Shown: piece after piece, positions 2,831 to 23,870 of the stretch
Position numbering within the stretch: position 1 is the stretch's first letter
Layout: each line of letters opens with the position of its first letter
From: Methanotrichaceae archaeon
Lineage (GTDB): Archaea > Halobacteriota > Methanosarcinia > Methanotrichales > Methanotrichaceae
Direction: 5' to 3'
NCBI GenBank assembly: GCA_963803145.1
Contig: CAWDLW010000033.1
Location: 1-32,837, forward strand
Length of the DNA stretch: 32,837 nt
Made by a program: the position numbers and the translations under genes
Notes under the pieces: model-generated
Databases searched by the model: none
The model's input: only the letters and a program-made list of their open reading frames with translations
Told to the model about the DNA's origin: nothing

Positions 2831-3175
2831 GATTCTATCATTCTTTCTTTTTCTCAATATCCTTTCTCTAGTGTGCTAACCAATTTCCCCACAATTGTCC
2901 CAGTATTGGGGTAGTTGCTAATCAGCATTGGTAGACCTCGCAGCTTATCGATTTCCCCAAGTTTCCCAGTTTCCCCAGGTAAGCAAATCATATTTTTGCA
3001 TAATATATAAGGCGCCTTGCAATATAGTTTGCTCAACTAATGTGCTATAAATTATTCATTTTATTAGATTATCAGAAATGTTATGAGCAAGCAGCTGTTT
3101 GATCAACATTTATAAAAACATAAGTATTGGCAAAATTTATGAACTAGAAGCGGTATTATCAAAACCAGAGGGATC

Positions 3176-5350
3176 TTGGCCATGGCAAAATTCACAAAAA
3201 TAGAAAGGGATCTCATAAATCAAATTAGCGATAACAACGATCGTTTAAAAAGTAACTTAGCAAAGATCCGCGAAGCTATGGAAGATCTATGGCCAAATGA
3301 TCCGGTGAGAATCATTCAATATTATACAGATCATGGTGTCAAACATAGCGAACGATTAGTAGGGTATGCCGCTGAGCTTCTTAAGGCAAACAGCAAGGAA
3401 CCTCTTTCAGATGAAGAAATGTATTTGCTTTTAGCAAGTATCTATTTACATGATATTGGAATGCAATGCGATGTAGTTAATTTTCCAGAAATAGAACGAA
3501 ATGCAGAAGATAAATTCGGCGCAAAATTTAATATTGAATTTAAATTAACAGATGGTAATTACGGTATCGAGATGCAAAAAGCTATTCGTAGAAACCATCA
3601 ATACCTTACAGCAGCATGGATTGATTATGCAAATCGTACTGGTAAAACCGCTCTTGGACCGTGCGCAAAGGATATTGATCCAGGCCTTGTAGATGACTTA
3701 ATTGATATCTGTAAATATCATTCCAAATTGCCAATCAATGAATGCCCAGCTAAACTGAATTATAATTCAAAAGGTCGCAAACAACTAGTAGCAGCGCTCT
3801 TGCGATTTGCTGATGAATTAGATATCGATCAACATCGCATATCAATAGCCACTACGAAAAATTTTTCGTTAGATCCAGATAATAGTGTTTATTGGTGGTT
3901 ACATAATCGCACTACAATTGGCTTTATTACGTCTAATATAATTCTCATATCCATTCAACTTCATCCAAACGATGTTAAAAAATATGGCCACCTCATTGAA
4001 GAAATATTTATCAATAATTTTTCGAATAAAAATAGACTTGTACTAGATGTACTTGGGGAAAACGGTATTCTCATAAGGATTAGCAGTGAATCCACTGTAA
4101 AAGGAAATGATCGCTATGATTTATTGCCCCAGGATATTGTTGATGCGATAAAGAAGATGAAAACACAAAAAGAAACACATAGAGTATCCCTGCCTGTTAA
4201 TATATGCAAACCAATGATAGAAGAATATGTAACTGAATCACAAAGATCAAAGGATCAAATCGGATCAGGGAACATTCGGTTAACGAGAATTCCTTTGAAG
4301 CCACAACCTTATTTTGCACACTTTTTCTACCTTCACGCAAATTTCACCGGTAGAATTGAAGAACGCAAAATGCTAATCGATTGGTTTAATAGCGATAGGA
4401 ATCCAATACTCATTTTTGTAGCCATTGGTGGAATGGGCAAGTCTTCTCTCGCATGGTATTGGTTGAAGAACGACATAGATTCTTCATCGCTTGAAGGCAT
4501 TTTCTGGTGGTCGTTTTACGAAGGTGAAGCGTCTTTTACTAAGTTCTTGGATGACGCAATTTTATACTCAAGCAGCATGGAAATAAATCCAGCAGATACT
4601 AGATCCAACTATGAGAAATCACGAATATTACTATCATTACTCCAACGGCATAGGTTCCTTTTTATATTAGACGGGTTCGAGAGACAACTTGGAGCATATT
4701 ATGATCTAAAAGAAGAATCCTCCTACGATGAGGATTTAAATGATGACGTGGCACAGGCAAGATCGTGTGTTGACCCCTATTTTGGCCGCTTTTTATGCGA
4801 TCTAATTTCTAGTGAATCAAAAACCAAGATATTCATAACATCACGCATGAAAATACGTGACCTAGAAGATGATACTGGAAATCCATTTGATGGTTGTCGT
4901 GTAGAAGAGCTCAAACAGTTCAATCCTGATGATGCATTTTTGTTTATGGAAGCGCAGGGTGTAACAAAAGGAACACGCAAGGAGATACTTGATGCGTGTG
5001 ATGTCTATAGATATCATCCGCTTAGTCTTCGTTTGCTGTCAGGCTTGATTGTGCGTGATCTTCAAAATCCTGGTGATATAGCTATCGCCCCTCGATACGA
5101 TATACATACAGATTTGAAGGCTAGACGACACCATATTCTTGAAGCGGCTTTTAATTCATTACCTGAGAAGTTACAGAAGTTGCTATCTGAAGCATCTGCG
5201 TTTCGTAGCACCATAGCATATGATGCTTTATCTACATTCGATGATTTTGATAGTGATTTGAAGTTTGAGGAAGCACTTAAAGATCTAATTGACTGGGGAG
5301 GATTCCTATTTACTTGTATCCTAAGGGCGGTTTTTTTAAATCGACTCTAG
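3176..5350 (+). CDS. N-terminal fragment of an HD-domain (HD-CE-like) + STAND/NB-ARC NTPase + TPR protein, interrupted by IS5 at 5297
   Basis: HD motifs YTDHGVKHSERL, LASIYLHDIGM, ICKYH, LLRFADELD; Walker A AIGGMGKS, Walker B FLFILDGFE, YHPLSL (GxP-like). The last ~17 codons are read from IS sequence. Probable ATG at 3182. Confidence 0.85.
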   Translation: MAMAKFTKIERDLINQISDNNDRLKSNLAKIREAMEDLWPNDPVRIIQYYTDHGVKHSERLVGYAAELLKANSKEPLSDEEMYLLLASIYLHDIGMQCDVVNFPEIERNAEDKFGAKFNIEFKLTDGNYGIEMQKAIRRNHQYLTAAWIDYANRTGKTALGPCAKDIDPGLVDDLIDICKYHSKLPINECPAKLNYNSKGRKQLVAALLRFADELDIDQHRISIATTKNFSLDPDNSVYWWLHNRTTIGFITSNIILISIQLHPNDVKKYGHLIEEIFINNFSNKNRLVLDVLGENGILIRISSESTVKGNDRYDLLPQDIVDAIKKMKTQKETHRVSLPVNICKPMIEEYVTESQRSKDQIGSGNIRLTRIPLKPQPYFAHFFYLHANFTGRIEERKMLIDWFNSDRNPILIFVAIGGMGKSSLAWYWLKNDIDSSSLEGIFWWSFYEGEASFTKFLDDAILYSSSMEINPADTRSNYEKSRILLSLLQRHRFLFILDGFERQLGAYYDLKEESSYDEDLNDDVAQARSCVDPYFGRFLCDLISSESKTKIFITSRMKIRDLEDDTGNPFDGCRVEELKQFNPDDAFLFMEAQGVTKGTRKEILDACDVYRYHPLSLRLLSGLIVRDLQNPGDIAIAPRYDIHTDLKARRHHILEAAFNSLPEKLQKLLSEASAFRSTIAYDALSTFDDFDSDLKFEEALKDLIDWGGFLFTCILRAVFLNRL

Positions 5351-6435
5351 ATTTGCCTTACGATGTTCGCTATTCTTGGTCTAACCTGTTTTTTTTCAGT
5401 TAATTCTCGATAGCATCCGCTATCCCTAAATGACATTTGCCTTTTTAAGAGTACAAAGCTGATACAAGTTAAAAGCGAAAGCGGTAACTATCATTTTCAC
5501 ATGCACTCTTCTGACTGATGTAACAAGCACTCTTCCAGCCTCGAAAACCCTCTTGATTACAGCATGGGGCCTTTCGCCAGGCGATCTGAGGATACTGATC
5601 AACTGATTGCGTTCTTTATCAAGATCAGAAAGAGGTTTATCAGTAGTCCTGCGCTTCATTGTAAAATCAATACCTTTGGCCTTCACACCGAAATATCCTC
5701 TATCTCTGAAAACTGGCACGCCAGGGATAGAGAGATCAACCTGACTGTCATGCAGTGATGCAGTCGAGGTCTCTATATCACGTATTAGGCTGTAATCGAT
5801 ATCAGTTATTTGATGTAACTTATATCCGAAGTGAGTTTCATTGCCTTTCTTAGCCCATGTGCCATCCTTGCTGCGACGTGTCTTAGCCTCATCGCCACGT
5901 GGTTTCTTTGACTCCGATGATCCTGGATCTGCTTCTATAAAGGTAGCATCCTGAACAATTCCGCGTCTGATCTTCAATCCTTTTGCATCCAACTGTCTTT
6001 GAAGTTCAGCCCAAACAAGCCTATCTGTTCCTGTCTCCGCCATTCGTTCTTTGAATGACCATATAGTTCTGGAATCAGGGAACTGATCAGGAAAACCAAG
6101 AAATGCCATAAATGATATGCGATCAGCCATTTGCCGTTCAACAGCCAGATCGCTCAGGCCATACCACTGCTGGAGAATCAGGATCCTGAACATTAGAATA
6201 ACATCACAGTTGGGCCTTCCGCCCTTCTCGGTCTTATTAGTATACATCCCTTCCAGAAGAGGACGAAAGGGAACCCAATTGATCAATCCAGATACTTGAG
6301 CTAATTTAGACTCCTCTTGCTTTGCATTTAGACCTTTCAATACCCAAGTAGTAAAAGAATCCATAACAATAAATACTATTTGCTGTATTTAACACTTTCG
6401 ATGCTAAAGCAGGGGGTAGGTTTATAGGAATCCTC
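5298..6435 (-). mobile_element. IS5-family insertion sequence
   Basis: Terminal inverted repeats GAGGATTCCTATTTAC / GAGGATTCCTATAAAC (14/16 match); 4-bp target duplication TGGG at 5294-5297 and 6436-6439; single transposase ORF. Confidence 0.93.
5426..6364 (-). CDS. IS5-family DDE transposase
   Basis: GGRP..LMFRILILQQWYGLSD, DRISFMAFLG, PDSRTIW, IVQDATFI, HFGYKLH, DRGY motifs. Confidence 0.93.
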   Translation of the reverse strand: MDSFTTWVLKGLNAKQEESKLAQVSGLINWVPFRPLLEGMYTNKTEKGGRPNCDVILMFRILILQQWYGLSDLAVERQMADRISFMAFLGFPDQFPDSRTIWSFKERMAETGTDRLVWAELQRQLDAKGLKIRRGIVQDATFIEADPGSSESKKPRGDEAKTRRSKDGTWAKKGNETHFGYKLHQITDIDYSLIRDIETSTASLHDSQVDLSIPGVPVFRDRGYFGVKAKGIDFTMKRRTTDKPLSDLDKERNQLISILRSPGERPHAVIKRVFEAGRVLVTSVRRVHVKMIVTAFAFNLYQLCTLKKANVI

Positions 6436-6525
6436 TGGGGACTACTTTTATTTAATAAAGATAATAAACATTTTGATCTGCATCCAATCGTTCGTAGGTA
6501 CGCCTATGATAGGCTTGTTGATAAG

Positions 6526-7803
6526 ATGGATACACATGTTCGATTACAAGAATATTTTATACCTCGTCTTCCTTGGCTAGAGAAAATAGATAATCTAGAT
6601 GATATCACCCCTATCGTTGAATTATATTATCACACAGCCAAAGCCGGACAATATGAGGATGCAATAAAATTATATAAAAACCAACTTAATCAAAAACTCC
6701 GTATTTGGTTTGGCGCTTTTCAGATAATTGTAGAACTCTTACAGTTGCTATTCCCCAGAGGATTGAATGAGATTCCATGTTTGCAAAAGGAAAACGATCA
6801 AGCATATGTACTTGATGAATTGGGACAGGCCTATATTAGATTAGGGCAAACACGTCTAGCATCGCATGCTTATAATCAAGCAGTTAAAATTGCAGAGATG
6901 TATTGCAATAAAGAAGATCTTGGCTCCTATAAATGTGATCTTGCAGTCCTTCTTATGGCTATTGGAAAACTTAAAGATGCTGAAAAGTATCTAAAACATC
7001 CAATAAGGGGGTCTCAAAAAAATTTGGATCAACTCAATGTGTCACTTAATTATGCTCGTTTGCTAAAATTTAAAGGATCGTTCGCCGAATCCAGTTTTAT
7101 ATTTAATGAAATAACCAAAAACGTAAATAAATCTGATAAACCAGAACATGCTCTTTGTATTATATTCAAAGATAAGGCTGACTTATTTATGAAGATGAAT
7201 AGGCCTTCCGAAGCTTACGAAGCTGCGGCTAAATCGCTGCTTCTTTGTAATAAGATTTCTGAAAAGAGAGGACCATATGAAAACGATCGTATTAATTCGG
7301 AATGGATGATAGGGCAGTCATTGATATATAAATCATTAAATAGCCCCGATAAAAGAGATGAACTTCTGCTTGAAGCAGAGTTACATTTGAAAGAAGCAAT
7401 TATTCGATGTCATAACATAAATTTGGTAGCTACGGAGCCAAATATTTTATTAGCGATAGCACTATGGCATTATGTAAAAGGGGAGATAAATCTAGCAAAG
7501 GATCTATCAAATGAAGCGCTTTATATAGCTAATAGATGCGAGTCCCGTTTGGATCAAGCGGAAATACATAACTTCCTTGCTCAGGTTTATCTTGATCAAG
7601 ATGATAAGGCAAAAGCAGTTCAACATGCGCAAATTGCCTTTGAATGTGCTTGGTGTGATGGTCCACCCTATTGCTATAAGCTTGAGCTTAATGCTGCAAA
7701 AGAACTCCTAGGAAAACTTGGGGTAAAGGAACCAGAACCTTCCATACCATTTAACCACTGGAGTGCAGACTTAACCACCAATTCAAAAGTAAAGGATATC
7801 TAA
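6526..7803 (+). CDS. C-terminal winged-helix/TPR fragment of the IS5-interrupted STAND protein (frame open from 6440)
   Basis: Removing the IS and one target duplication gives in-frame ...LIDWGLLLFNKDNKHFDLHPIVRRYAYDRL...; helical TPR-like repeats follow. Confidence 0.82.
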   Translation: MDTHVRLQEYFIPRLPWLEKIDNLDDITPIVELYYHTAKAGQYEDAIKLYKNQLNQKLRIWFGAFQIIVELLQLLFPRGLNEIPCLQKENDQAYVLDELGQAYIRLGQTRLASHAYNQAVKIAEMYCNKEDLGSYKCDLAVLLMAIGKLKDAEKYLKHPIRGSQKNLDQLNVSLNYARLLKFKGSFAESSFIFNEITKNVNKSDKPEHALCIIFKDKADLFMKMNRPSEAYEAAAKSLLLCNKISEKRGPYENDRINSEWMIGQSLIYKSLNSPDKRDELLLEAELHLKEAIIRCHNINLVATEPNILLAIALWHYVKGEINLAKDLSNEALYIANRCESRLDQAEIHNFLAQVYLDQDDKAKAVQHAQIAFECAWCDGPPYCYKLELNAAKELLGKLGVKEPEPSIPFNHWSADLTTNSKVKDI

Positions 7804-9130: not shown

Positions 9131-10096
9131 ATGGGATCGTCAATAGCAGACATCATTTCCTTGATACTCGTTATTGCAGCAATAGTTACCATTGCAGCTA
9201 ACTTTCCCAACGCACTTCGTACTATAATTACCCTTCATAGCGTTTCTTCAGTTATAATCTCGTCTTATTTGAAGAATAAGGGTAATAGATTAAGATATAA
9301 GAAAAAATATAGTGAAGCTATCAAATGCTATGATAAGGCTATAGGCCATTTGAAACAATTTCCTGCGCCAGATTTAAAATCGGAGATATTAAATGAAAAG
9401 GGATTGGCTTTCTATTATATGGGTAATTACGACGATGCCCTAATGATATATAACAAGGTAATCGAGCTTAATCCAAAGTTTGCATATTCTTGGAACAACA
9501 AGGGTTTAATTTTCCATAAGCAAGGCAATTACGATGAGGCTATAAAAGCATACGACAAAGCCATTGAGCTTAATCCTAAATTCGCAAACCCTTGGGTTGG
9601 TAAAGGCAATATTTTTGATGAGCAAGGCAAGTATGATGAGGCTATAAAAGCATATGATAAAGCCATTGAGCTTGATCCAAAGTTTGCTATTTCTTGGAAC
9701 AATAAAGGGATGCTTCTTCATAAACAGGGAATGTATGACGAGGCACTTAGTGCATATGATAAGGCAATCGAGTTTGATCCGAAGTATGCAAGTCCCTGGA
9801 ATGCAAAAGGTGTTATTTTCTATCGGTGGGGAAAGTATGGCGAGGCACTCAAAGCATATGGCATGGCAATCAAGCTTGATCGGGAGTTTGTTCAATCATG
9901 GAACAACAAAGGAGATATTTTGTACGTGCAGGGTAGGTATAACGAGGCTATCAAGGCGTATGATAGAGCAATCGAGCTTGATTCGAAGTTTGCAAATCCT
10001 TGGAATGGTAAAGGCAATGCACTCAAGGCGCTAGAACGAATTATTGAAGCAGATGCAGCCTTCGCCAAGGCTAGGGAGTTGGGATATAAAATCTGA
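9131..10096 (+). CDS. TPR-repeat protein with N-terminal membrane anchor
   Basis: About 7 canonical 34-aa repeats (WNNKG...YDEAIKAYDKAIELDPK); hydrophobic N-terminus. Confidence 0.92.
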   Translation: MGSSIADIISLILVIAAIVTIAANFPNALRTIITLHSVSSVIISSYLKNKGNRLRYKKKYSEAIKCYDKAIGHLKQFPAPDLKSEILNEKGLAFYYMGNYDDALMIYNKVIELNPKFAYSWNNKGLIFHKQGNYDEAIKAYDKAIELNPKFANPWVGKGNIFDEQGKYDEAIKAYDKAIELDPKFAISWNNKGMLLHKQGMYDEALSAYDKAIEFDPKYASPWNAKGVIFYRWGKYGEALKAYGMAIKLDREFVQSWNNKGDILYVQGRYNEAIKAYDRAIELDSKFANPWNGKGNALKALERIIEADAAFAKARELGYKI

Positions 10097-10450: not shown

Positions 10451-11196
10451 TCAAAGCGCCAAACACTGCTCATACATCTCTCGTTTTGTTTTATCTGATA
10501 CATGCGCATATCGCAAAGTAGTTCGGATATCGCTATGCCTAAGTATATCCTTAACTATGCGAATATCGCAGCCATTAGCGATCAGGATCGTTGCGGGAGT
10601 ATGTCTAGCGAAAACATGGAGCCCTCCAGGCTTTTCAATTTGTGCCAGATTTTTATATTTCATAAACATTCCGTATAGCTGCAATCTATCTCATCTATTT
10701 CCATAATCCGTATAGAAAAGTGGTTGTCTGCCATTTATTTCAAATAATGGCCGAACCTCTAAATACTGTCTGAGTACGCGAATACACTCATCTTTTAAAC
10801 AGACAATCCCATCTTTTCCGCATTTCCCTTCGCGGACCCTTAAAGTACGCGCATTTAGATCCAAATCTGAATCATCAAGGTTACAGAGTTCACTTGCCCT
10901 TAAACACCCATAAAATAGCGTCATTAGCATAGCATAATGCTTTAGATTATTGCATACGCTGAAAATTTTAATAATATCCTGTTCATCGAAATAATATGGT
11001 ATAGTTTGGTTAAGGGGTTGAAAAGGGAAATTAAATTCCTCGCCAAACATCTTAAAATAATTCTTAAGAGCGATTCCACTGTAGATTCTCTGAATCCTTG
11101 GTCATTCAAGTATTGCCTAAACCTTATCAGATTAGGCATAAAATCCTCGTCCTTGGTGGGCAACTCCCAATTTAGTTTAAGCCTATTTTTAGCCAT
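10451..11196 (-). pseudogene. Tyrosine integrase/recombinase pseudogene, paralogue of 25360-26238
   Basis: LFYGCLRASEL, HVFARH, ILRHSDIRTTLRY catalytic motifs; frameshifting deletion of ~43 codons near 11070 relative to the intact paralogue; W>TGA nonsense at 10691-10693. Confidence 0.9.
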
Positions 11197-11293: not shown

Positions 11294-11350
11294 ACGCCGA
11301 GGGTGGGATTCGAACCCACGAGCTCCGAAGGAGCACAGGTTTAGCAAACC
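11294..11350 (-). repeat. att site: 57-bp exact copy of the tRNA-Ser 3' half (matches 26336-26392)
   Basis: ACGCCGAGGGTGGGATTCGAACCCACGAGCTCCGAAGGAGCACAGGTTTAGCAAACC is identical at both positions. Confidence 0.97.
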
Positions 11351-12815: not shown

Positions 12816-13316
12816 ATGAAAATGATTGTTGAAGTACACTCTCCTGTGACACAACCCGCGCAAGCAGTTGTGGAGATGCTTAAAAGCATTGGCAGAAAGT
12901 TCGATCCTCTCCCCGACGCAGTTCACCTACCAGGGATGGCCTTAGTTCTGTCCTCAAAAAGAGACTGCTATTATGCCACGCTCCCATCCACATGCAGTTG
13001 TCCTGCCCGGACATACCATCCAGAAAAGCCGTGTAAACATATGAAGCAGTTTTTCTCTGAAGCTCAGATCCCCAAAAAGACTCTCCTTGAGGCGATGGCA
13101 GAGGAAGGCTATGAAATGAGCTTTGAGCCAGATCCAAAGTATGATCCCAGAGCAAAGATCGAAGCGGCTAAAGCTAAAATTGAGGTGGTAAAGCAGCAGG
13201 CCAGGGCATACCAGGCCAAACAGAGAGAGCTTAGGAATCTTGCAAAGCTTGGATGTGCTCAGCCAGACGGCGAAGAGATTCTGGTATCTGGCAAATTCAA
13301 GCCCGTCCTGGAGTGA
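12816..13316 (+). CDS. SWIM zinc-finger protein with C-terminal coiled coil
   Basis: CSCP-x8-CKH motif; AGGAGG RBS. Confidence 0.8.
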   Translation: MKMIVEVHSPVTQPAQAVVEMLKSIGRKFDPLPDAVHLPGMALVLSSKRDCYYATLPSTCSCPARTYHPEKPCKHMKQFFSEAQIPKKTLLEAMAEEGYEMSFEPDPKYDPRAKIEAAKAKIEVVKQQARAYQAKQRELRNLAKLGCAQPDGEEILVSGKFKPVLE

Positions 13317-13321
13317 TCCAC

Positions 13322-14149
13322 ATGGCTGACATATACACTAAAGTTACAGCCAGGATCATCCAGGCCATGGAAAAAGGAATAGTGCCCTGGAGAAAGCCTT
13401 GGCGAGCTTCCGGACCAATGAATCTAGCCAGCAAGAGGACGTACAGGGGCGTCAACCTACTTTTACTTTCCATCACTGAGTTCGAGAGCCCGTATTGGTG
13501 TTCATTCAAACAGGCCCGCCGCCTGGGAGGGTCTGTTAAAGCGGGCGAACAGGCACAGACGTTCGTTGTGTTCGCTAAAGAAAGCGTGTACGAGGCGGAG
13601 GACACAGATGGTAATAAAGTGGTAAGGAAAGGTTTCGTACTAAAGTATTCACCTATTTTCAATATCGAACAGACCAGTGGTGTTAAGCTCCCAGAGGAGC
13701 CGCCTATCGAGCACGTGGATGCCGAAGAATACCTAAGGAGAGCTACATGTAAGCCCGACATAAGGTACGGCGGGGATAAAGCCTACTACAGCCCAACCAC
13801 AGACCGCATACAGATGCCCACCCGTACTCAGTTCGTCTCCTCTGGGGGCTTCTACAGCACTCTTTTCCATGAGATAGGCCATTGGACAGGCGGCCCGAAG
13901 AGATTGAACAGAAACTTCGAGACCGTGAAAGAGACTAGGGCTAGGGAGGAGTTAACAGCAGAGATGTTCTCCACGTTTGCTCTCAACAAGGTCGGGCTGG
14001 ATGTGACGGTTGAGAATGAAGCAGCATACATTCGAAGCTGGATTCAACCATTGAAGTCAGACCCTCGAGCATTAATTGCCGCATCTCATGCAGCTGGGGA
14101 AGCAATAGAATACTTCGAACGTGGGAAACTCCCAGGAGATGCAAAGTGA
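13322..14149 (+). CDS. ardC: ArdC-family ssDNA-binding antirestriction protein with zincin-like domain
   Basis: GIVPWRKPW, YRGVNLLLL, SFKQARRLGGSVKAGE, FNIEQT, AYYSPTTDRIQMP, FHEIGHWTG, EELTAE, YIRSW; start taken at MADIY behind GGAGTGA. Confidence 0.92.
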   Translation: MADIYTKVTARIIQAMEKGIVPWRKPWRASGPMNLASKRTYRGVNLLLLSITEFESPYWCSFKQARRLGGSVKAGEQAQTFVVFAKESVYEAEDTDGNKVVRKGFVLKYSPIFNIEQTSGVKLPEEPPIEHVDAEEYLRRATCKPDIRYGGDKAYYSPTTDRIQMPTRTQFVSSGGFYSTLFHEIGHWTGGPKRLNRNFETVKETRAREELTAEMFSTFALNKVGLDVTVENEAAYIRSWIQPLKSDPRALIAASHAAGEAIEYFERGKLPGDAK

Positions 14150-14346: not shown

Positions 14347-14554
14347 GCGTACGATAGAAATGAGCTGTATATTTGCCAAATAATCTTAAATATTTAATAA
14401 CAACAAAATCGCAATGTTTATATGGTCGTATCCAAATGATCGCAAAAGGAGGGTTAATACTAAAAAGGAGCATCGAAATTGTCAGGCATGCAAGATTTGG
14501 TTAATATTATTGGAATATACTTTGACTAGAATTCTGATCACGGAGGGGAATATT

Positions 14555-15340
14555 ATGAGGTTTAGTTTTGCATTCATTTTGGTAATTTTGGTATTGCTAT
14601 GCGTACCAGCATTCGGGCAAACCGCTGATGACTGGTATGATAAAGCGGCTAAAGCCTATAACATGGGTTCATACGATTTGGCCATCAAATATTTTGATAA
14701 GGTTCTGGAGCTAAGACCTTCAGATACAGATGCGTTAACCTACAAAGGCAACATTCTCAATCATCAAGGCATGTACGACGAAGCAATTCAAGCCTATGAT
14801 AGCGCTATTGAAATTAATCCGCAAGATGAATCCGCACAGTTTGGTAAAGGAGTCGCTCTTTCCAATTTGGGCAAGTACAATGTATCAGTCGAATCTTTCA
14901 ATAATGCCATTACGATCAATCCACAGGATGCGGATGCTTGGTATAACAAAGGTATTGCCCTAAATGAAATGGGCAAGTATAATGAGGCCATACAAGCTTT
15001 TGACAACGCTATTACGATTAATCCGCAATTTGCTAGTGCTTGGTATAACAAAGGCGTCATTCTAAAGAAACTGGGCAAATACAATGAGGCAATTGAAGCA
15101 TATGATAACGCAATTGCGATCAATCCCCAAGATTCAAGTGCTTGGTTTGGTAAAGGCAATGCGCTCAGTGATATAAGCAAGTTTGAGGATGCCATTCAGG
15201 CATATGATAATGCCATCAATATTGATCCACAGTTCAAAAACGCCTGGAACAACAAAGGCATTGCACTAAAAGCAATAAATCGAAACAGTGAAGCAGAGGA
15301 AGCCTTCTCCAAGGCTGGAGGGGCCAAGTACACTAGTTAA
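14555..15340 (+). CDS. Secreted TPR-repeat protein
   Basis: Signal peptide MRFSFAFILVILVLLCVPAFG behind GGAGG; ~7 TPRs. Confidence 0.9.
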   Translation: MRFSFAFILVILVLLCVPAFGQTADDWYDKAAKAYNMGSYDLAIKYFDKVLELRPSDTDALTYKGNILNHQGMYDEAIQAYDSAIEINPQDESAQFGKGVALSNLGKYNVSVESFNNAITINPQDADAWYNKGIALNEMGKYNEAIQAFDNAITINPQFASAWYNKGVILKKLGKYNEAIEAYDNAIAINPQDSSAWFGKGNALSDISKFEDAIQAYDNAINIDPQFKNAWNNKGIALKAINRNSEAEEAFSKAGGAKYTS

Positions 15341-15368: not shown

Positions 15369-16067
15369 TTGAAAATATATTTATTCATCGTTTTGATATC
15401 ATTCGCTGTGCTGTGCGGAATTGTATTCGGACAGACTACGGCACGCGATTGGTGTGAAAAGGGCCGTATACTTTACGAACAGGGCAATTATAGCGAATCT
15501 ATTCAGGCTTTTGATAAGTCTATTGAGCTAAATGGTACCGATTCTCAATTCGCTTGTTATTTCAAGGGAATGGCTCTTGCTGAACAAAGCAAATATGATG
15601 AGGCTATTAAGGCATTAGATAAATCCACTGAACTACGGCCGAGTGATGAAGGAACTTGGATTCTGAAGGGCCAAACTTTGCTCTATCTTGGCGATCTATA
15701 TGATAATATAGGCATGTACAATGAAGCGCTTAAAACCTTCGATAAGGTTATAGAAATAAATTCAAAGTCGCACGACGCGTGGTATTTGAAGGGTCTCACT
15801 TTACACATTCTAGGTAAGTACACTGATGCTATTCAAGCATATGATACGGCTATTCAACTCGCACCTAACGATTCGCACGGATGGTATCAAAAGGGTTATG
15901 CCCTTTCTGATCTTGGCAAATATAACGAGTCCATCAACGCTTTCGATCAAGCCATTAAGATTAATCCACAAAACACACTAGCGTGGATTGGTAAGGGTAA
16001 TTCTCTTGAAGCGCTCGGGAGAAACGCCGAGGCAGCAGCGGCTTTCACCCACTCAAAGAAATCATAA
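15369..16067 (+). CDS. Secreted TPR-repeat protein
   Basis: TTG start behind AAGGAGG; signal peptide; ~6 TPRs. Confidence 0.88.
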   Translation: MKIYLFIVLISFAVLCGIVFGQTTARDWCEKGRILYEQGNYSESIQAFDKSIELNGTDSQFACYFKGMALAEQSKYDEAIKALDKSTELRPSDEGTWILKGQTLLYLGDLYDNIGMYNEALKTFDKVIEINSKSHDAWYLKGLTLHILGKYTDAIQAYDTAIQLAPNDSHGWYQKGYALSDLGKYNESINAFDQAIKINPQNTLAWIGKGNSLEALGRNAEAAAAFTHSKKS

Positions 16068-16086: not shown

Positions 16087-16887
16087 ATGTCTAAACAAGG
16101 CTCATCTAAAAAGAATGTTCGTGAGAGATATGCGAAAACAAAGACAACACTCATTTTATGGCTAATGCTCATGGCATTTTTTATATCAGCTTCAGGGCAG
16201 CAAACTGCCGAAGAATGGCTCAACGAAGGTCTTGCCCTCTACAACCAGAGCAGATACGATGAAGCCCTACAGGCATATGATAAGGCAATAGAGATCGATC
16301 CACAATGCGCTGAAGCGTGGTTTAATAAAGGCAATGCCCTCGATAAACAAAGTGCGTATGAATCGGCCATCAAAGCTTATGAAAAAGCTATCAAGATAAA
16401 TCCACAATTATCTGCGGCCTGGATCAATAAGGGTCTAACACTTAGGCACCAAAGAAAGGCTCGACCACAGACAGGCACCTTCTTAAGGGATACTGCAGAT
16501 CGAACTTGGTTTGGGGAACTCAATGTAATTAACGATAATCCTAAGTTCGATGCTATTGTTGTGTTGACGAAAACCGATAAGGTGCCGCTCATAGCTGTAT
16601 TTATTCGATCTAAAGAGTCTTATAAAATTAGTGCTATACCGACGGGAACTTATTATATTTACTACAAATTGGGTAATATATTTGATAGTACATCTGACGA
16701 GTTCAAAGAAAAAGGGGGCAATTATCGACTGGCTATGCCTATAGACTACAAGAGCACTGTAACCATGGAATCAAATATACAAAAGATTAGATATCCCGCT
16801 TTGACTATGGCTATAGAAGGTTCAGTGCCCAATGGAAATGTCGCCATGAAGAGGATATCGGTGCCTGAGGAGGAGTTCCCGATTTAA
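16087..16887 (+). CDS. Secreted/membrane TPR protein with C-terminal beta-rich domain
   Basis: Hydrophobic segment, 2-3 TPRs, then GELNVIN...AIPTGTYYIYY beta-sandwich-like region. Confidence 0.85.
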   Translation: MSKQGSSKKNVRERYAKTKTTLILWLMLMAFFISASGQQTAEEWLNEGLALYNQSRYDEALQAYDKAIEIDPQCAEAWFNKGNALDKQSAYESAIKAYEKAIKINPQLSAAWINKGLTLRHQRKARPQTGTFLRDTADRTWFGELNVINDNPKFDAIVVLTKTDKVPLIAVFIRSKESYKISAIPTGTYYIYYKLGNIFDSTSDEFKEKGGNYRLAMPIDYKSTVTMESNIQKIRYPALTMAIEGSVPNGNVAMKRISVPEEEFPI

Positions 16888-17239: not shown

Positions 17240-17851
17240 GTCAAACTGCGGCGGCGCACCCGCGCAGCAAGCTGCGGGGCATGCGAGGCGCCGCCGCAAT
17301 AGCCCCGCTTATTCAAATTCAAACAGCTTCATTTGATTATAGCTTTCTTTCTCCTCAATCGATCCTTGCCTTTCAATATAATTTCTTATAATTTCAGCAG
17401 TTATACCCTCACCTACGGTACCAATATAGCCACCATCACTCCAAAACTCTCCACCCCAAAGTTGTTTTCTGATTTCAGGAAAGGCTCTGAAAATTTGCCT
17501 TGCAGTTATACTTTTTATAACTTGCATAACCTTAGATGGCGCATATTTTGGCGCTGATCCAACAAAAACGTGGACATGGTCTCCATCTGTCCCAATAGCA
17601 TCAAATTCAAAACAATATCTTTCACCAATCTCAATACATACATTCTTAAAAAGGTCTATCCTTTCCTGATCGATAAGTAATTTCTTTCTATATTTTACAC
17701 AAAGCACCATATGATATCTGATTCTGTAAACACAATGGCTTGCATGCCGCAATTCCAGCATTAATTCAGATAGCGCCTGCTAGAACTAAATACCTTATTA
17801 ATCCCCTGTTAGTTTGCCATCCCCACAGCAAGCTGTGGGGTATTCGTTAAA
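17240..17851 (-). mobile_element. IS200/IS605-family element, tnpA only
   Basis: Subterminal hairpins CCCCACAGC-AA-GCTGTGGGG (17821-17840) and GCAGC-AA-GCTGC inside an 11-bp inverted repeat (17247-17298); inserted 3' of TTTAT, ends in TGAC, no target duplication. Confidence 0.88.
17309..17761 (-). CDS. tnpA: IS200/IS605 Y1 HUH transposase
   Basis: YHMVLCVKYRK, DHVH (HUH), IKSITAR, LWGGEFWSDGGY, IRNYIERQ. Confidence 0.95.
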   Translation of the reverse strand: MLELRHASHCVYRIRYHMVLCVKYRKKLLIDQERIDLFKNVCIEIGERYCFEFDAIGTDGDHVHVFVGSAPKYAPSKVMQVIKSITARQIFRAFPEIRKQLWGGEFWSDGGYIGTVGEGITAEIIRNYIERQGSIEEKESYNQMKLFEFE

Positions 17852-20318
17852 ATAAATCAATCGCATCCTCACCCAGGGGCGGGGTGATGGTGCCATCCTT
17901 GGAAATATAGCGATAAACAGGATGATACATGCCAGTGTACAACCCATATCCTTTACCAGTCCATGTGCAGACGAGCCCGCCCTGGTTATCAAATGACGAT
18001 TGCCCGGCTGTCTGGTTGTATCCAGCGGCTGATTTGCCGGGAGAGAAATTAACTGGCGCTGACCACGCCCCGCCGATTCGGTTAGAGTAATAAACATCGC
18101 CAATCTTAGTATCTGGATCTGACCATTTCTTGTAGAATAAATGCGGAACACCGTTTGCATCTAAAAGCAGGTTGCCTGGAAAACCAACATAATTACCATT
18201 ACCCCCAACGATCTTTTCAATGGCGTTCCAAGTCCCCCCGACGTTGTTTATGTATTGAATCGAACTGAAGTTGGTAAAATCAAACCACGCAACATGGACA
18301 GCGTCATTTTTATCGACATCGAGAGATGGATATCGTGCGTCAATATCGTCGGCGGATAGATCTTCTCTTGCTCCCCACGCGCCGTCTTTCTCCCAGTGGC
18401 AAATCGTGCTGTAATTCGCATGGGCGATATTGACGTTCCCACATGCAGCGACTATATGCGGGTGATCATCCGGGTCGCACAAGACGGTACTTTCGAATGA
18501 CGGATACAATGAATGAAGATCGCTAATGTTTACAGGAACGCTCCAAGCTCCCTCTTTGGGCTTGTACCTATAGAAGACATCTTTACCGAACAAAGAAAGA
18601 TCGAGGTCGCTATTGACTTGCATGAAATACGGGGCAAAATATGCCGGGTAGTTGGAGGTTGCTTCAACATCAGTCACACCAACGCCGTGATAATGGTCAG
18701 TATTTGAAATCCATGCATGACCAGACCAGGGGTATTCGTAATAATCCATACCAGCGGAGCCAACAGCAGGTCCAGTATTACCGGAAAAATTATCGTGAAT
18801 ATGAGTAGTACTGCCGCCAGCATCGGAATAAGAGTTGTTTCCAACAATGCACTTATTAGAAAGTATTCCACTGCTACTGAGATCTGTGGAGAAGAGACTT
18901 GAAAGAACTGATGCGGATAGTATGATAGAATTTGCAGGAAGAGTAGTGATAGGAGACGTGACCAATCCAAGTATAGTATTGTAACTGGGTGGAATATGGC
19001 TGGATGGAGACGAGTTAATACTAAATGGGTGGGTATGGCCGCAGCCAGCAAAAGTATACGAAGGATACATTTCCATCTCACAAGTTAGGCAGCCATCGGC
19101 AGCGGCAAAAGTGCCAGAGAACGTATGGTAATTAGTAGCAGATCCGCCTAAAGTGCCGACTGTATCGCTCCCGAATATGTAATATCCATCCTGGTCTGAA
19201 TATCGAGAGAACCCGGCTGGAACAGCGTTGGTAAACGGAATCACGATGTCCGCAGGAAGAGATGGTGGAATACCTGGATATTTGAGAATTTTCATGGACC
19301 GATATGGAGGAAGACGAGACGCCAAAGACAAACTGACGGGTCCGAATGAAGAATGATGATAACCATGTAACGCAACATATGTGTAATACAAACCGACATC
19401 GTATCCCATATTGGTAGCCCCGATGGAAGCTCCACCCCAATATGAATACGAATGAGAATGATTATTGGCTGATAAATCTGGGCTATACGCGCCAGTACCG
19501 CCTGTCAATATACGCTGATTGGCATTTCCGCCCACACCTGAAACAAGGGTGAACCCGGCAGGAGTGGAAGAACCGCTGAATAACCAATAAGTGTAATCAA
19601 GAACTCCGTCCCACTTGGAATAAGTTATATGAATTCCATCATTTTTATCGACCGTGATGGATGGATTGATATATTCCACGAATGCTTCATCGGAGTCAAC
19701 GATTTCAGAAGTCCAATGTTCTCCACCATCGACGCTTTTGAGGTACACAACCCTATGCCGCCCGGCGATCTTGTAGTTGCATATGGCATGCAAAGTACCA
19801 TCAGATGTCTTAACTAAATGACGAGAAGACACTGGATACAGGACAAATTGAGCCGATCTATTATCAGGAGAATAATTGGGCAGATCGAATGTGGCAGAAG
19901 GTATTATGGTGACATCATCCGGCGCCAAGTCAGTCACATGTGTCTTATGCCACCAATCACTAATACTCTGCTCTTCTGGTTGCTCCAGATCCGTAACCGC
20001 TCCCAGGTCATCAACCCACGGACCGTCACCAACGATGATGGAGACACTGCCGCCACTATGTAAGGTCCTCTTGTGGAGAACTTCGGCTGGATCTAATTCG
20101 GTTTGATAGATAGTTATGGGAACATGGTTTTCATCGAGAACTCGCATATTAGAGATGGGATTTAGTCGGGATTTATCAAGGACAAGAGCAGGGTCGATAG
20201 CCGTCCTGTAGCACGTAACGGGATCACCCGTAGGATTTTCAAGAAGGATTACACTGATGTCACGAGATTCCGATAATGGAACTCTTGCTTTGTTTCGAAC
20301 TTCGAATAGATCGGTCAT
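17847..20318 (-). CDS. Large BNR/Asp-box beta-propeller protein with inserted tail-fibre-like HxH repeats (putative adhesin/receptor-binding protein), truncated by IS200
   Basis: Asp-box SVDGGEHW; repeated PS(I/L)xVDKNDx(I/V)H(I/V)xW/Y blades; three collar/HxH repeats; ATG at 20318 lies 1 nt after the upstream stop. Confidence 0.75.
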   Translation of the reverse strand: MTDLFEVRNKARVPLSESRDISVILLENPTGDPVTCYRTAIDPALVLDKSRLNPISNMRVLDENHVPITIYQTELDPAEVLHKRTLHSGGSVSIIVGDGPWVDDLGAVTDLEQPEEQSISDWWHKTHVTDLAPDDVTIIPSATFDLPNYSPDNRSAQFVLYPVSSRHLVKTSDGTLHAICNYKIAGRHRVVYLKSVDGGEHWTSEIVDSDEAFVEYINPSITVDKNDGIHITYSKWDGVLDYTYWLFSGSSTPAGFTLVSGVGGNANQRILTGGTGAYSPDLSANNHSHSYSYWGGASIGATNMGYDVGLYYTYVALHGYHHSSFGPVSLSLASRLPPYRSMKILKYPGIPPSLPADIVIPFTNAVPAGFSRYSDQDGYYIFGSDTVGTLGGSATNYHTFSGTFAAADGCLTCEMEMYPSYTFAGCGHTHPFSINSSPSSHIPPSYNTILGLVTSPITTLPANSIILSASVLSSLFSTDLSSSGILSNKCIVGNNSYSDAGGSTTHIHDNFSGNTGPAVGSAGMDYYEYPWSGHAWISNTDHYHGVGVTDVEATSNYPAYFAPYFMQVNSDLDLSLFGKDVFYRYKPKEGAWSVPVNISDLHSLYPSFESTVLCDPDDHPHIVAACGNVNIAHANYSTICHWEKDGAWGAREDLSADDIDARYPSLDVDKNDAVHVAWFDFTNFSSIQYINNVGGTWNAIEKIVGGNGNYVGFPGNLLLDANGVPHLFYKKWSDPDTKIGDVYYSNRIGGAWSAPVNFSPGKSAAGYNQTAGQSSFDNQGGLVCTWTGKGYGLYTGMYHPVYRYISKDGTITPPLGEDAIDLF

Positions 20319-20319
20319 A

Positions 20320-20682
20320 TTAAAACCCAGACTGTAGCTTGGGTATTGGATCACCCAGGGGCGCTGGGGCGTCGGGACTCGGGGGAGATACAACTGTTCC
20401 TCCCATCATAACGATTTGGCCACTCGACGGGTCTTTTACGACATACTGGGTGGTGCTCGTGCCGTTAGAGTCGATTGTTGTGCGAACATTTTCTATAGAT
20501 ATATCCCCGAGCCTGCTAAATTGGGGTGTGATATTTTGAGCCTTGAACACTTCAGCTATATGCGCCCTGATGTTATCAGTTATATTTTTCGAAGGCGCAG
20601 CATCGCTTGTGCTGTTAGTCTCCTGTGCCGATCCGGCTGCTAGCAAGCCCGCCAGCAGCACCAATGCCAACATTGTTTTCAT
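20320..20682 (-). CDS. Small secreted protein
   Basis: Signal peptide MKTMLALVLLAGLLAAGSAQ; AGGAG RBS; N-glycosylation sequons; Pro-rich tail. Confidence 0.75.
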   Translation of the reverse strand: MKTMLALVLLAGLLAAGSAQETNSTSDAAPSKNITDNIRAHIAEVFKAQNITPQFSRLGDISIENVRTTIDSNGTSTTQYVVKDPSSGQIVMMGGTVVSPPSPDAPAPLGDPIPKLQSGF

Positions 20683-20939
20683 TTTTTCTTCAACTCCTAT
20701 CCATTATCATGTTCCAATTCAACTGCCAACAACAAAAAATCAAAAATCGAGGGAAACCCGCTTCGCGGGAGCCCTATAATAGGAAACGCCGGAAATACCC
20801 AAAATTTGATCAAAGGTAGGTATAGAATCATCGCAAGCAGTAGGTTAATTAATATCACGCAACCCCTAGACGAAAGATCCTCACCCAGCCCGACGAACGA
20901 TCTTGGAGAGAAATCGGCATCATCCGACCCGTTAGAGGT

Positions 20940-21234
20940 GTTTACACAGGCCGTTTTCGCTATCATCAGACGCTGTTTACAACGTGTTAACATGAAGTTT
21001 ACTTTGAAAACCGATATCGGACGGATCTGTTTACCAAGTTTACCTGTTTTTGACACATATACACTAATATTCTCATTTTTTCTCGCCCCTCCCCCAGGGG
21101 AGAGGGCGGCGCCCTGAGTTATACTGTTATACTGTATATATGTATTAAATATAGGTAAACTAGTAAACACCGGGTTAACACGTAACGTTTTTTCCGATGT
21201 AAACACCCGGTAAACAGGAGTAAACAGGGTAAAC
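20940..21234. other. Putative replication origin with inverted iteron arrays
   Basis: 5x GTTTAC (20940, 20975, 20997, 21029, 21038) and 6x GTAAAC (21155, 21163, 21199, 21210, 21220, 21229) flank a GC hairpin and an AT-rich tract, directly downstream of the primase-helicase gene. Confidence 0.8.
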
Positions 21235-21239
21235 ATGCC

Positions 21240-23870
21240 CTACGCCTCCTGTTTCCACTCGGCTACAAGCACCTGCTCCAGCCCCGGCGCCCGCGCTTCC
21301 TGGGGGATCGGCGCCCGGAGATGGAGATAAAGCTGGGTCGTCCTGCTGCCACATCCTACATGGCCCTCGTCGGAATCTTCACTAACTTTCTCCGTGAAGA
21401 AGTTCGGACACTTGGACGACAAACCGCCATCACTGTTTCGCCCATTAATAAGCTGTGAGAGACGAGATTTTGTGATATCCATCTTTTTCCAGGCATCTTT
21501 GTAAGAAATACTACAGCCATGGTCGCTCACGATCTGTAGAAGTTTAAGTTCCTGTGACGAGAGTTTAGTCCTCATTTGCTGGTGGATATGCATGTACAGA
21601 GCTAAAGCATCTGAGAAATCTTGTCGGACTGCTGTTACCCTGATAATGCCGTTCGGGTCGGTCGAATTCTCTCTGACGCGGTAGCGCATTACTGCAAATG
21701 CGTAAATCAGATCCATGAAGATGTTAAAGTTTCTAACATTGGCCCGCCCGTTATTCATCTCTTTCCAATCAATTCTCTTGTCCGCATCGGGTATTGTCAC
21801 TATATATCGATTTGACTTCAGCTTTTCAAGGCAGCACCGGCAGACAGCAATATCCGGGTCGGTAGAGGGTGTAACACCAGTTGAAGCTCGTTCGAGGGCA
21901 TTTCTTATAATATTTTTGTCTCTTTCAAGACTACCTTTAACTTCCAACATCAATGTCCTGTTCAAGACTTCTGCCTCATCCTTGCTATCCACCTGGGTGC
22001 TGACGATCTGCACGCCGGGTGGTATTTGGGCCAAGAAAGCATCCTGCTCAGCGACAGTCTTGTAACTGTAACCGTTCTTGAAGTTGGTTTGGTTTCTTTT
22101 AAGGACATCGGCCAGCCTATCACTAGGCCGATTATCGTCGAGGATAACCATCATACCAGAGAAAATACTTTTTCCAGCATGATACAACAAGGCCATAGGG
22201 CTCATACCGGAGACATCTACCCATCGGCCCATTTGTTCGGCCGCTGTCAATACCGCGTGACTTTTCCCATCCCCCGAGTCACCATTCACTTGAATTACTG
22301 CTATGCCCGTGCTGTTTTCGATGTTAGCAGACAGGTTTGCAGCTAAAAGTGATGTAGCAATATGCTTGTCCTCTTCATGCCTTCTATTGTATACTTCAAC
22401 CCAAAATTCGGGGAGAGTGCAATTATTTAGTATCTCTTCAGCCTTAGTTTCGATATCTTCATCGAACTTTTCAGGCTCAAATTTGACTTCTTCATTAGCT
22501 CCCAGCGCCTTCTGGGTGGGTTTGAACACATGCGTTACTTCATTAACGTCTACACCGAGCTTGAGGAGCTGCTTTTCGTGCTTTTTGGCAATACGGTAAG
22601 CTGCTTTTTCTTCCTCTTCAGAGAAGTCCTCGCTGAGGATTTTATCTATCAGGTCTTTATAATTCTCGATATCCCATTTGGAGAAGCCTTTTCCATCTTT
22701 ACTCGTAGCACCATCACACTGCCTGCTGAGAGCCCTGAAACAGCTAATTACCGTTACCCCCGTGGGAATGACTGGGCGCTTGAGTTCCGCTACCTGCTCC
22801 TCAGTGACGTATCCCAACTCCAAGGCAGCATCTACAGCATCCCAATACTTCTTCCCCCGGAGAGCACCGCTACCAGCTTCTTCCCATTTGATGATGCCCT
22901 TCATGCAGGCGATAAAATCCAAAGGCGACCCGCCCCGGTTCAAGCCATCGTGCATGTAGGCCCAGCTATTTTTCTCGATGTTTACGAGAAGATTATGACC
23001 CGAGCTGCTTCCGAGGGTAGGATGGGGTCCCGCCAACTGCCCTGATTCCGTGTGCCAGTCCGGGCCGGTAGTGTCGATAACTTTCAGAATATCAATGTGA
23101 AGAGTCTTCTGAGGCTCCGCCTCCACATCCTGGGGGCGCGGCTTCTTCCTTTCGGCCTCTAAATCCTCAATGGTCTCTGTGCCGAAAACCTTAATTTTAA
23201 AATCTCTTATGGCGCAATGTATGACCGACTCGAGACCAAGGTAGCAGTTTGGGTTGTCAGGGAAGGAGAGTTCGGGGATCTTTTTGCCTGTGAAGACGAG
23301 AAATCTGGAGCCGATGCCTTTCTTGGTAGTCTCATTATAGACACCACCTTCATACAGCTCTACGCCGTTAAATCTGGCCTTTTCGCCCTTTATTTTTATT
23401 ATGTTGGCCTTACACTCATCAGAAAGATCATCTGGACCTTCAAAAACGAATTGATGAGAAGCAGTCAGTTTGGGGAGACCTGTAGTTGGTGCGATGAATC
23501 GCAGGCCACATTGAGAGGAGGAGTACTCTGTATATATGGGTTCAATCTTCTTTATGATATCAGCCGCGAACTTTCCTATCTCTCCTGTTTCTGGATTTAC
23601 GCAGCAATCAATGTCTCCGCCGACGAAGCCCTGACCATGCTTCATCAACATGCCAATGCCGGTGCACTTGCGGTTCTTTTCTCTGATTTCTAATGCCTCG
23701 TCAAAGCCTAGCCATCCCTTCGGGTCCTGCCAACCACTGAGAGTGAAGCCCTTGCCGCTTTTGTTTCTAACAATTGGATTCTTCTTACCGTCAAAGCATA
23801 GTGCCCACTGAGGCAGCTTTTTGATTAGATCCGGTAGTTGGGAATAGTCGGTCATCTTACATGCTGCCAT
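21240..23870 (-). CDS. Bifunctional primase-polymerase (AEP) fused to P-loop helicase and C-terminal wHTH; replication protein
   Basis: QW..K.P..W..F..A..GIG..GGDIDCC, YTEYSSSQCGLR, VELY..RF..TG prim-pol motifs; Walker A GDSGDGKS, Walker B VILDD, LNR arginine finger. Confidence 0.88.
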   Translation of the reverse strand: MAACKMTDYSQLPDLIKKLPQWALCFDGKKNPIVRNKSGKGFTLSGWQDPKGWLGFDEALEIREKNRKCTGIGMLMKHGQGFVGGDIDCCVNPETGEIGKFAADIIKKIEPIYTEYSSSQCGLRFIAPTTGLPKLTASHQFVFEGPDDLSDECKANIIKIKGEKARFNGVELYEGGVYNETTKKGIGSRFLVFTGKKIPELSFPDNPNCYLGLESVIHCAIRDFKIKVFGTETIEDLEAERKKPRPQDVEAEPQKTLHIDILKVIDTTGPDWHTESGQLAGPHPTLGSSSGHNLLVNIEKNSWAYMHDGLNRGGSPLDFIACMKGIIKWEEAGSGALRGKKYWDAVDAALELGYVTEEQVAELKRPVIPTGVTVISCFRALSRQCDGATSKDGKGFSKWDIENYKDLIDKILSEDFSEEEEKAAYRIAKKHEKQLLKLGVDVNEVTHVFKPTQKALGANEEVKFEPEKFDEDIETKAEEILNNCTLPEFWVEVYNRRHEEDKHIATSLLAANLSANIENSTGIAVIQVNGDSGDGKSHAVLTAAEQMGRWVDVSGMSPMALLYHAGKSIFSGMMVILDDNRPSDRLADVLKRNQTNFKNGYSYKTVAEQDAFLAQIPPGVQIVSTQVDSKDEAEVLNRTLMLEVKGSLERDKNIIRNALERASTGVTPSTDPDIAVCRCCLEKLKSNRYIVTIPDADKRIDWKEMNNGRANVRNFNIFMDLIYAFAVMRYRVRENSTDPNGIIRVTAVRQDFSDALALYMHIHQQMRTKLSSQELKLLQIVSDHGCSISYKDAWKKMDITKSRLSQLINGRNSDGGLSSKCPNFFTEKVSEDSDEGHVGCGSRTTQLYLHLRAPIPQEARAPGLEQVLVAEWKQEA

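Follow-up and report, generated by a model that had tools for sequence, protein, structure and literature searches.

Are the two open reading frames (ORFs) listed on the + strand at 3176..5350 and 6526..7803 of contig CAWDLW010000033.1, from a Methanotrichaceae archaeon (GCA_963803145.1), the 5' and 3' parts of one gene, and what would the product of that gene have done? The window (the whole stretch of DNA analysed, 32,837 nucleotides (nt)) had been described by an original prediction made from the sequence alone, in which the locus 3176-7803 (+) was given as an Avs-like defence protein with an HD domain, a STAND nucleoside triphosphatase (NTPase) and a TPR sensor, silenced by an IS5 insertion sequence (IS). 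The reading favoured here, and considered probable, is that of a single-gene archaeal NLR-like STAND receptor, carried as cargo by an old integrated element at tRNA-Ser until an IS5-family insertion inactivated it in recent times; its intact form would have been a tripartite receptor of antiviral type. The domains stand in the order that had been predicted (HD, STAND, winged helix with the LHP motif, TPR), as borne out by domain matches, fold and alignment. The catalytic and nucleotide-binding motifs are intact; the gene is disrupted.

One gene split by an IS5-family element

The two ORFs belong to a single gene of 1159 codons (3182-7803, +), split by one IS5-family insertion. When the IS and one TGGG (5298-6439) were removed by script, 3182-5297 and 6440-7803 joined in a frame of 1159 codons with 0 internal stops, and 22 of the 119 listed database homologues (the window's own protein excluded) were found to run as one BLASTP segment over the junction (residue 705/706). 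The continuous frame announced by the original prediction is thereby confirmed. P0005, the best junction-spanning homologue, is 73% identical over 818 residues. On the 5' side of the IS (336 residues) the figure is 81% and on the 3' side (75 residues) 83%, so neither half of the gene shows further decay. Each ORF does contain a possible start codon, as would be expected of separate genes that are continuous by chance; this alternative has virtually no chance of being right, being refuted both by the junction-spanning homologues and by the exact restoration of the frame, in the middle of a conserved domain, when the IS and one TGGG are taken out.

Translation most likely starts at ATG 3182 and not at TTG 3176, where the original prediction had placed the start (its length of ~1160 residues is corrected to 1159 aa): 28 of 28 aligned relatives start at that Met, with the shared N-terminal stretch Met-Ala-Lys/Arg-Phe-Thr. 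A possible promoter and ribosome-binding region (3108..3175, +) was tentatively read directly from the sequence. It includes a putative TATA-like TTTATAAAAA near 3109-3118, ~65 nt 5' of ATG 3182, and the purine run GAGGGA, putatively ribosome-binding, 7-12 nt 5' of this ATG.

The IS (5298..6435, -) is 1138 bp long. Its transposase gene (5426..6364, -; 312 aa) matches NCBIfam NF033581 'IS5 family transposase' with 201 bits (cut-off 140), as well as Pfam DUF772 and DDE_Tnp_1. The terminal inverted repeats are 12 nt long and perfect (12/12; 5298-5309 and 6424-6435), and the element is flanked by a direct repeat, the target-site duplication TGGG (left copy, 5294..5297; right copy, 6436..6439). In its own genome (4.13 Mb, 51 contigs), 13 full-length copies with 98-100% identity and identical ends are found, together with two 75% relatives and two fragments; a 4-bp target duplication is present at 11 of the 13 copies (one possibly 5-bp). 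These near-identical copies, their identical ends and the target duplications make the limits of the IS exact and its activity recent. Membership of the IS5 family is given by the DDE transposase, the terminal inverted repeats, the target duplication and the multiple copies. Two copies, C8:311726-312863 and C12:68355-69492, have no target duplication; 'tctg' is common to the left flank of the former and the right flank of the latter, which hints at recombination between IS copies.

The insertion lies inside the winged-helix domain, 15 codons 5' of the conserved LHP motif, and parts effector and NTPase from clamp and sensor. The product of the 5' ORF (724 aa) would consist of HD-CE and NTPase and end in 17 residues encoded by the IS, LHP clamp and sensor both being absent; the insertion has cut the 3' part off from its promoter and start. 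The receptor as designed is therefore dead. The 'silenced by IS5' of the original prediction is right as to disruption by an IS5-family element; silencing would be an expected consequence of the disruption.

An opposite possibility is that the locus is not silent: the 724-aa product would still be made and would act, either through low-level constitutive enzyme activity or as a dominant-negative partner, or the insertion would have been selected to relieve autoimmune toxicity. The 5' ORF retains its start, the putative TATA box, the Shine-Dalgarno-like run and all catalytic motifs, it ends just 17 codons into the IS, and neither half is further decayed. This is nonetheless quite improbable. 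Among the sequencing runs searched, one DNA run (share 0.09) and no RNA run contained the locus; a STAND protein cut in its winged-helix domain is expected to misfold or to lose regulated assembly; and the neighbouring integrase and PolA genes are decaying too, which indicates neutral loss. Assembly of the DNA run gave a 189-nt contig at 3604-3792 and pieces of the IS, and no contig bridging or skipping the insertion site.

Domains of the protein and their relatives

The HD-CE module (residues 1-330; 3182..4171, +), the presumed effector, comprises an HD-superfamily phosphohydrolase core and a small C-terminal beta/alpha subdomain. It matches Pfam PF24391 HD-CE with 107.3 bits (cut-off 27) over residues 47-244. 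D50, H51, R58, H90, D91, D97, N138, H139, H180, D211, E212 and D214 are invariant in 29 aligned sequences and are all kept here, and the HD metal-ligand residues (H51, H90-D91, H139, H180, D211/D214) are all intact. Two-metal HD phosphohydrolases have this H..HD..H..H..D pattern. The AlphaFold model of the module is confident (pLDDT 88.6, pTM 0.89) and has the HD fold; judged by this model, the module is folded like an HD enzyme and has the active site of one. Its best long structural alignments are with cyclic-nucleotide phosphodiesterases, GppA/PPX, Rel/SpoT hydrolase and YhaM; Foldseek found no match of the model in PDB at E<=0.001. A protein atlas look-up repeats the HD-CE assignment and adds nothing more.

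A poorly conserved linker (~residues 331-366; 4172..4279, +) follows, delimited by the ends of the module alignments: the alignment of HD-CE relatives ends at ~residue 330, that of NTPase relatives begins at residue 321 or ~366-370, and identity over residues 321-369 is merely 18-37%.

The NB-ARC-type STAND NTPase, with the first helices of the winged-helix domain (residues 367-705; 4280..5297, +), was recognised from invariant alignment columns and by Foldseek. Walker A (GGMGKS, K420), Walker B (FILDGFE, D497 and E500) and HPLS (612-615) are invariant in 21 aligned sequences. The 5' part of the protein scores 16.4 bits against Pfam NB-ARC PF00931, under the cut-off of 23.5; relatives of the same clade score above it (P0021, 30.8 bits; P0050, 31.6; P0060, 27.8; P0117, 26.4). 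The NTPase model (pLDDT 82.6) stops at the IS, so its winged-helix domain is incomplete. In Foldseek it matches tomato NRC2 (5.8e-10), the archaeal STAND protein PH0952 (1.5e-9), CED-4 (2.7e-9), ZAR1 (7.6e-8) and Apaf-1 (1.6e-7). As modelled, the fold is clearly NB-ARC despite the sub-threshold Pfam score.

The rest of the winged-helix region (residues 706-780; 6440..6663, +) was delimited by frame reading and by its identity to P0005. It contains the LHPIVR motif (residues 719-724; nt 6478-6495), in which L, H, P and R hardly vary across alignment A2, the alignment with which NTPase relatives were sought (see below). LHP is taken to be the MHD equivalent and HPLS presumably the GLPL equivalent.

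The TPR region (residues 781-1159 and stop codon; 6664..7803, +), the presumed sensor, matches TPR_12 with 53.8 bits (cut-off 30.1), and also TPR_2 and TPR_1. Its divergence outpaces that of the NTPase: identity to P0005 is 69% in the TPR region and 81% in the NTPase, and for other relatives 26-45% and 50-66%, respectively. When solved structures were searched with the NTPase-TPR profile, TPR proteins alone were found among the 60 matches listed of 107: the TPRs of LGN/Pins, the sensor of the STAND protein PH0952 (4e-15), AfsR (1e-10) and MalT (4e-6). Searched by sequence, neither half of the gene matched any solved structure at E<=1 or E<=0.1.

The two modules have separate relatives. Among the 119 listed homologues, 92 match HD-CE only (50-69% identity), 27 match the NTPase-TPR part only and none matches both at BLASTP E<=1e-3. 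An exhaustive HMMER search over 1.84 billion representatives gave 3235 matches at E<=0.001 (623 at E<=1e-30); nearly all of the top 150 are confined to residues 1-~335 or to residues ~340-706, those reaching further being P0145, P0192 and a few two-stretch matches. Both modules are covered in just 2 of 133 further representatives, P0129 (32% identity, residues 1-857) and P0246 (31%, residues 6-633); three more extend to the P-loop. On these comparisons, the exact pairing of modules is unique so far. Unique module pairings are usual for NLR-like genes. No paralogue was found in the genome by protein search, i.e. the gene is single-copy, and a DNA search of 40 relatives found no intact orthologue, one 67% partial match only being present.

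HD-CE is patchily distributed: of 151 genomes of the archaeal class, 49 have it (10 of the 27 genera), as against 0 of 14 control genomes. A set of 18 HD-CE ORFs from this class was compared; it leaves out the 12 best-scoring HD-CE loci (L003-L014), L030 (no frame >700 aa) and L024 (its sole such frame does not overlap the HD-CE match). Seven of the 18 (1001-1224 aa) are intact and carry HD-CE, NB-ARC/DUF7779 and TPR. The others carry a KAP NTPase (2), NACHT (2), HD-CE only (2), TPR only (2), an HSP90-type ATPase (1), caspase–iHD-CE (1) or a helicase with a C-terminal HD-CE (1). At the level of domain matches, the HD-CE + NB-ARC + TPR architecture is thus common, and the combination that the original prediction did not recognise turns out to be known as an architecture; what does stand is that the exact pairing of modules has no close full-length relative. 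The claim that HD-CE is more usually fused to HSP90-like ATPases is not supported for this branch: 49 of the 92 listed HD-CE relatives carry NACHT and 13 more the NACHT-associated iREase domain, and HSP90-related domains are found in 2 of the 18 archaeal ORFs (HATPase_c_3 in one; in the other a wHTH-Hsp90-associated domain without ATPase domain match), against 7 of 18 with NB-ARC/TPR. Other fusion partners of HD-CE are response-regulator, histidine-kinase and GAF domains (P0046, P0085, P0096), as well as caspase and Mrr domains.

The loci L003-L014 form a second HD-CE subgroup, common in two genera of a sister family, with frames of 354 to 1000 aa (at least 753 aa in ten of 12) and E values of 1e-51 to 1e-58 against Pfam in 11 of 12 loci (L014, 2e-43). 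A different, conflict-type architecture is found at L031:3690-8228 (-): 1512 aa with an N-terminal caspase, an iHD-CE domain (an HD-CE that its designation in Pfam marks as presumably inactive) and wHTH-Hsp90-associated domains.

Immune effector or regulatory enzyme

What kind of output would an HD-CE domain give on this chassis? Relatives of the NTPase were collected by a scan with alignment A2, one genome per species; a contig scan with the single protein had found no relative. The scan gave 454 loci, of which the best 80 were taken; 79 have usable N-terminal regions (L098, with just 26 codons upstream, was left out). In these 79, the N-terminal slot holds TIR (46), DUF4062/NIR (13), Mrr_cat (2), PNP_UDP_1 (1), Metallophos (1) or no recognised domain (16); HD-CE is found in none. 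Metagenomic relatives of the chassis carry Metallophos, TIR, bDLD1 or DUF4062. DUF4062 has recently been renamed NIR and is reported in a preprint (10.64898/2026.09.04.749371) to degrade NAD as an effector of Avs2 and of other NLR-like proteins. According to a 2026 survey of prokaryotic STAND proteins (PMC13581612), which distinguishes 198 defence-associated STAND clades and Avs6-21, a clade is considered defence-associated if at least 50% of its representatives have an effector domain; 63 of the 79 relatives would satisfy this rule, provided that these Pfam families count as effectors there. Since the slot of the relatives holds TIR, DUF4062/NIR, Mrr, PNP and Metallophos, HD-CE occupies, judging from this comparison, the slot of known immune effectors on an NTPase-TPR chassis, and effector swapping makes a defence role of the STAND protein plausible; among the arguments for defence, this one is the strongest. 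Supporting points are that the gene is single-copy and absent at the DNA level from 40 relatives, that HD-CE is patchy, that the TPR region diverges fast and that the location is a mobile element.

Several results weigh on the other side. No Avs/AVAST profile (Avs1-5) of PADLOC v2.0.0 matches either half at E<=0.1, and membership of Avs, suggested by the 'Avs-like' of the original prediction, is not supported. Near the bacterial relatives (first 13 of the 26 loci with full flanks, within 5 kb), clear defence neighbours are found in 3 loci, namely a type III CRISPR-Cas system (L062), a TIR protein (L044) and an SspH-like gene (L048), kinases only in 2 and nothing in 8, a mixed picture without matched control. 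The 7 intact archaeal HD-CE–NB-ARC–TPR genes, which belong to another NB-ARC branch, have housekeeping neighbours: class I tRNA synthetase, RNA polymerase subunits, PEP-utilising enzyme, Cdc48 and P-type ATPases. The neighbourhoods, which the original prediction had proposed as a check, give mixed evidence on a defence role. Viral contigs yielded one weak HD-CE-like locus (26% identity) and no NTPase relative. The literature searched held no relevant paper on HD-CE, iHD-CE or wHTH-HSP90 and no test of an HD-CE STAND protein, and the effector catalogue in the supplementary discussion of a bNACHT preprint includes no HD domain. In the parts of the literature covered, no HD effector is described on a STAND protein, bar one mention: of two eLife surveys, one names the HD domain among the possible effectors of eukaryotic TRADD-N proteins. 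Calcineurin-like phosphoesterases are predicted in these surveys to be nucleotide phosphodiesterases. The 'IetA' and 'mad' matches near the archaeal HD-CE–NB-ARC–TPR genes were rejected as defence genes, being Cdc48 and a methyltransferase. Among the 23 ORFs of the window, PADLOC found no known defence system; generic TPR, PolA-like and the candidate PDC-M04A were the only matches.

The archaeal neighbours bear on the main alternative, a non-immune signal-transduction STAND protein like MalT, AfsR or PH0952, in which the TPR region would sense an endogenous metabolite or protein and HD-CE would hydrolyse a nucleotide messenger or alarmone. The housekeeping setting of the archaeal genes, 2 of the 7 loci being syntenic in two genomes of one genus, is in keeping with it, as are the match of the TPR profile to the PH0952 sensor, AfsR and MalT, the place of PH0952 as third-best fold match of the NTPase, the structural alignments of HD-CE to cyclic-nucleotide phosphodiesterases, GppA/PPX and Rel/SpoT hydrolase, and the fusions of HD-CE to response-regulator, histidine-kinase and GAF domains. 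It is considered unlikely: in 80% of the nearest NTPase-TPR relatives the slot is taken by TIR, DUF4062/NIR, Mrr, PNP or Metallophos, i.e. cell-killing or nucleotide-depleting domains and not regulators; the gene in the window has no second copy and lies on a mobile element that has decayed; and HD-CE is fused to caspase and Mrr domains as well.

For the favoured receptor of antiviral type, a mechanism can be proposed by analogy with established STAND/NLR behaviour. At rest, the protein would be an ADP-bound NB-ARC monomer, clamped by the winged-helix His of LHP and by the TPR arm. A ligand, most likely a virus or mobile-element protein, would bind the TPR arm and release the clamp; nucleotide exchange and oligomerisation would follow. 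Oligomerisation would gather the N-terminal HD-CE domains and switch on a metal-dependent phosphoesterase. This enzyme would most likely act on nucleotides or short nucleic acids, whose phosphodiester or phosphoanhydride bonds it would cleave, and the infected cell would be arrested. The weakest step is the substrate: hydrolysis of nucleotides or oligonucleotides is narrowly preferred to a plain DNA/RNA nuclease, because of the alignments to phosphodiesterases, GppA/PPX and YhaM and because Metallophos, a metal phosphoesterase too, is found on the closest chassis relatives whose enzyme is not TIR or NIR.

A wider proposal is put forward tentatively, its chances being rated just short of even: HD-CE would be a true immune-effector class, a metal-dependent phosphoesterase switched on by oligomerising NLR-like receptors of several NTPase clades (NB-ARC, NACHT, KAP) and destroying nucleotides or nucleic acids in infected cells; proteins of the present kind would be archaeal pattern-recognition receptors for archaeal viruses, and the window would show one receptor just after its loss to an active IS. 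Effectors of bacterial NLR-like proteins that destroy nucleotides or NAD have been found through unfamiliar domains in the slot of known effectors, and the work on NIR/DUF4062 follows the same logic. The STAND locus nominates HD-CE as a candidate effector on a chassis that otherwise carries TIR, NIR, Mrr, PNP and Metallophos, and, in a field where nearly all work has been on bacteria, it adds an archaeal case. Being a pseudogene, the window's copy matters chiefly because it directs attention to the family. It also illustrates clearly how an IS can knock out a costly cargo gene carried by an integrated element in decay.

Genomic setting and known systems

The genome is archaeal, as the original prediction had it: the small-subunit ribosomal RNA models give 1560 bits for the archaeal one vs 1122 for the bacterial one (two 16S genes). 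A tRNA search places tRNA-Ser(GCT) at 26336-26422 (-). A 57-nt direct repeat of its 3' part (11294..11350), an exact match to 26336-26392 by script, marks the att junction of two tandem elements. The younger integrated element is the 15.1 kb between the 57-nt repeats and has an intact tyrosine integrase (25360-26238). The broken tyrosine-integrase gene of the older element (10460..11190, -; tblastn, Pfam Phage_integrase on the fragment 10691-11050) lies directly left of the 11294 repeat; over residues 86-290 it is 62% identical to the intact integrase, and residues 2-50 are found in another frame. This second integrase left of the inner repeat indicates two tandem integrations at one tRNA. The left part of the window is the older tandem element, with the STAND gene, a TPR gene and a DNA polymerase pseudogene. 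The latter (family A, 1867-2679) consists of two ORFs (115 and 140 aa) with one in-frame stop between them, its N-terminal part missing; the ORFs match consecutive parts of Pfam DNA_pol_A and of the phage DNA polymerase phrog_17. The insertion in the STAND gene fits the decay of the whole older element.

The younger element carries the integrase, a primase-like 876-aa ORF, an ArdC-type gene, an IS200-type transposase and three TPR genes. The ArdC-type anti-restriction protein (13253-14149) has ArdcN and MPTase-PolyVal domains (phrog_7245, E 1e-66), and the IS200/IS605-type Y1 transposase (17309-17761) matches Pfam Y1_Tnp (E 2e-33). Large ORFs without Pfam or PADLOC family are found at 17847-20393, 20697-21236, 21240-23870 and 24149-24841; the 876-aa ORF has a weak primase-like N-terminus (PHROG, E 4e-11) and the 848-aa ORF has no match. 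Four TPR-only genes of 232-321 aa (9131-10096, 14414-15340, 15369-16067, 16087-16887) are spread across both elements, three of them in tandem. Just past the PheRS genes, a DUF3800 protein is encoded at 30695-31333 (PADLOC candidate PDC-M04A, E 1.4e-6).

Taken with its relatives, the STAND gene appears from sequence as a broken member of a widespread, presumed antiviral sensor design, new in its pairing of modules and already known in its architecture. Its IS shares with IS5-family elements the transposase family, the inverted repeats, the 4-bp duplication and the many identical copies; nothing about it is unusual. Its HD-CE module is a clear member of Pfam PF24391, with all invariant residues, and is placed N-terminal to a large NTPase/repeat protein as in most relatives; unlike here, the closest HD-CE modules (at most 69% identity) sit on NACHT and pentapeptide repeats, not on NB-ARC-TPR. 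The HD fold and metal-ligand motif are common to HD defence enzymes (SAMHD1/dGTPase, nucleotide depletion; Cas3 and Cas10 HD nucleases), which are possible precedents for the action of an HD effector. Plant NRC/ZAR1, CED-4 and Apaf-1 are the best matches of the NTPase model (E 6e-10 to 2e-7, probability 1.00) and have the P-loop and Walker B in common with it; they differ by their low identity (13-15%), by a CC/CARD adaptor where an N-terminal enzyme is found here, and by LRR/WD40 where TPR is found here. PH0952, MalT and AfsR have a similar TPR arm, PH0952 also ranking third among the NTPase fold matches; they have DNA-binding outputs or none, whereas an HD enzyme is found here and TIR/NADase domains in the relatives. 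The tripartite plan of effector, STAND NTPase and repeat sensor, which the original prediction had assigned to prokaryotic NLR-like proteins, is followed: as in Avs/AVAST and other such proteins, one polypeptide begins with a swappable enzymatic effector, has a STAND NTPase in the middle and ends in TPR-like repeats, and effectors found on the chassis relatives (TIR, DUF4062/NIR, Mrr, PNP) are also those of Avs and bNACHT proteins. It differs from Avs/AVAST by the lack of an Avs1-5 match, an NTPase of the NB-ARC/AP-ATPase type, a predicted HD-CE phosphohydrolase effector, an archaeal host and a broken copy.

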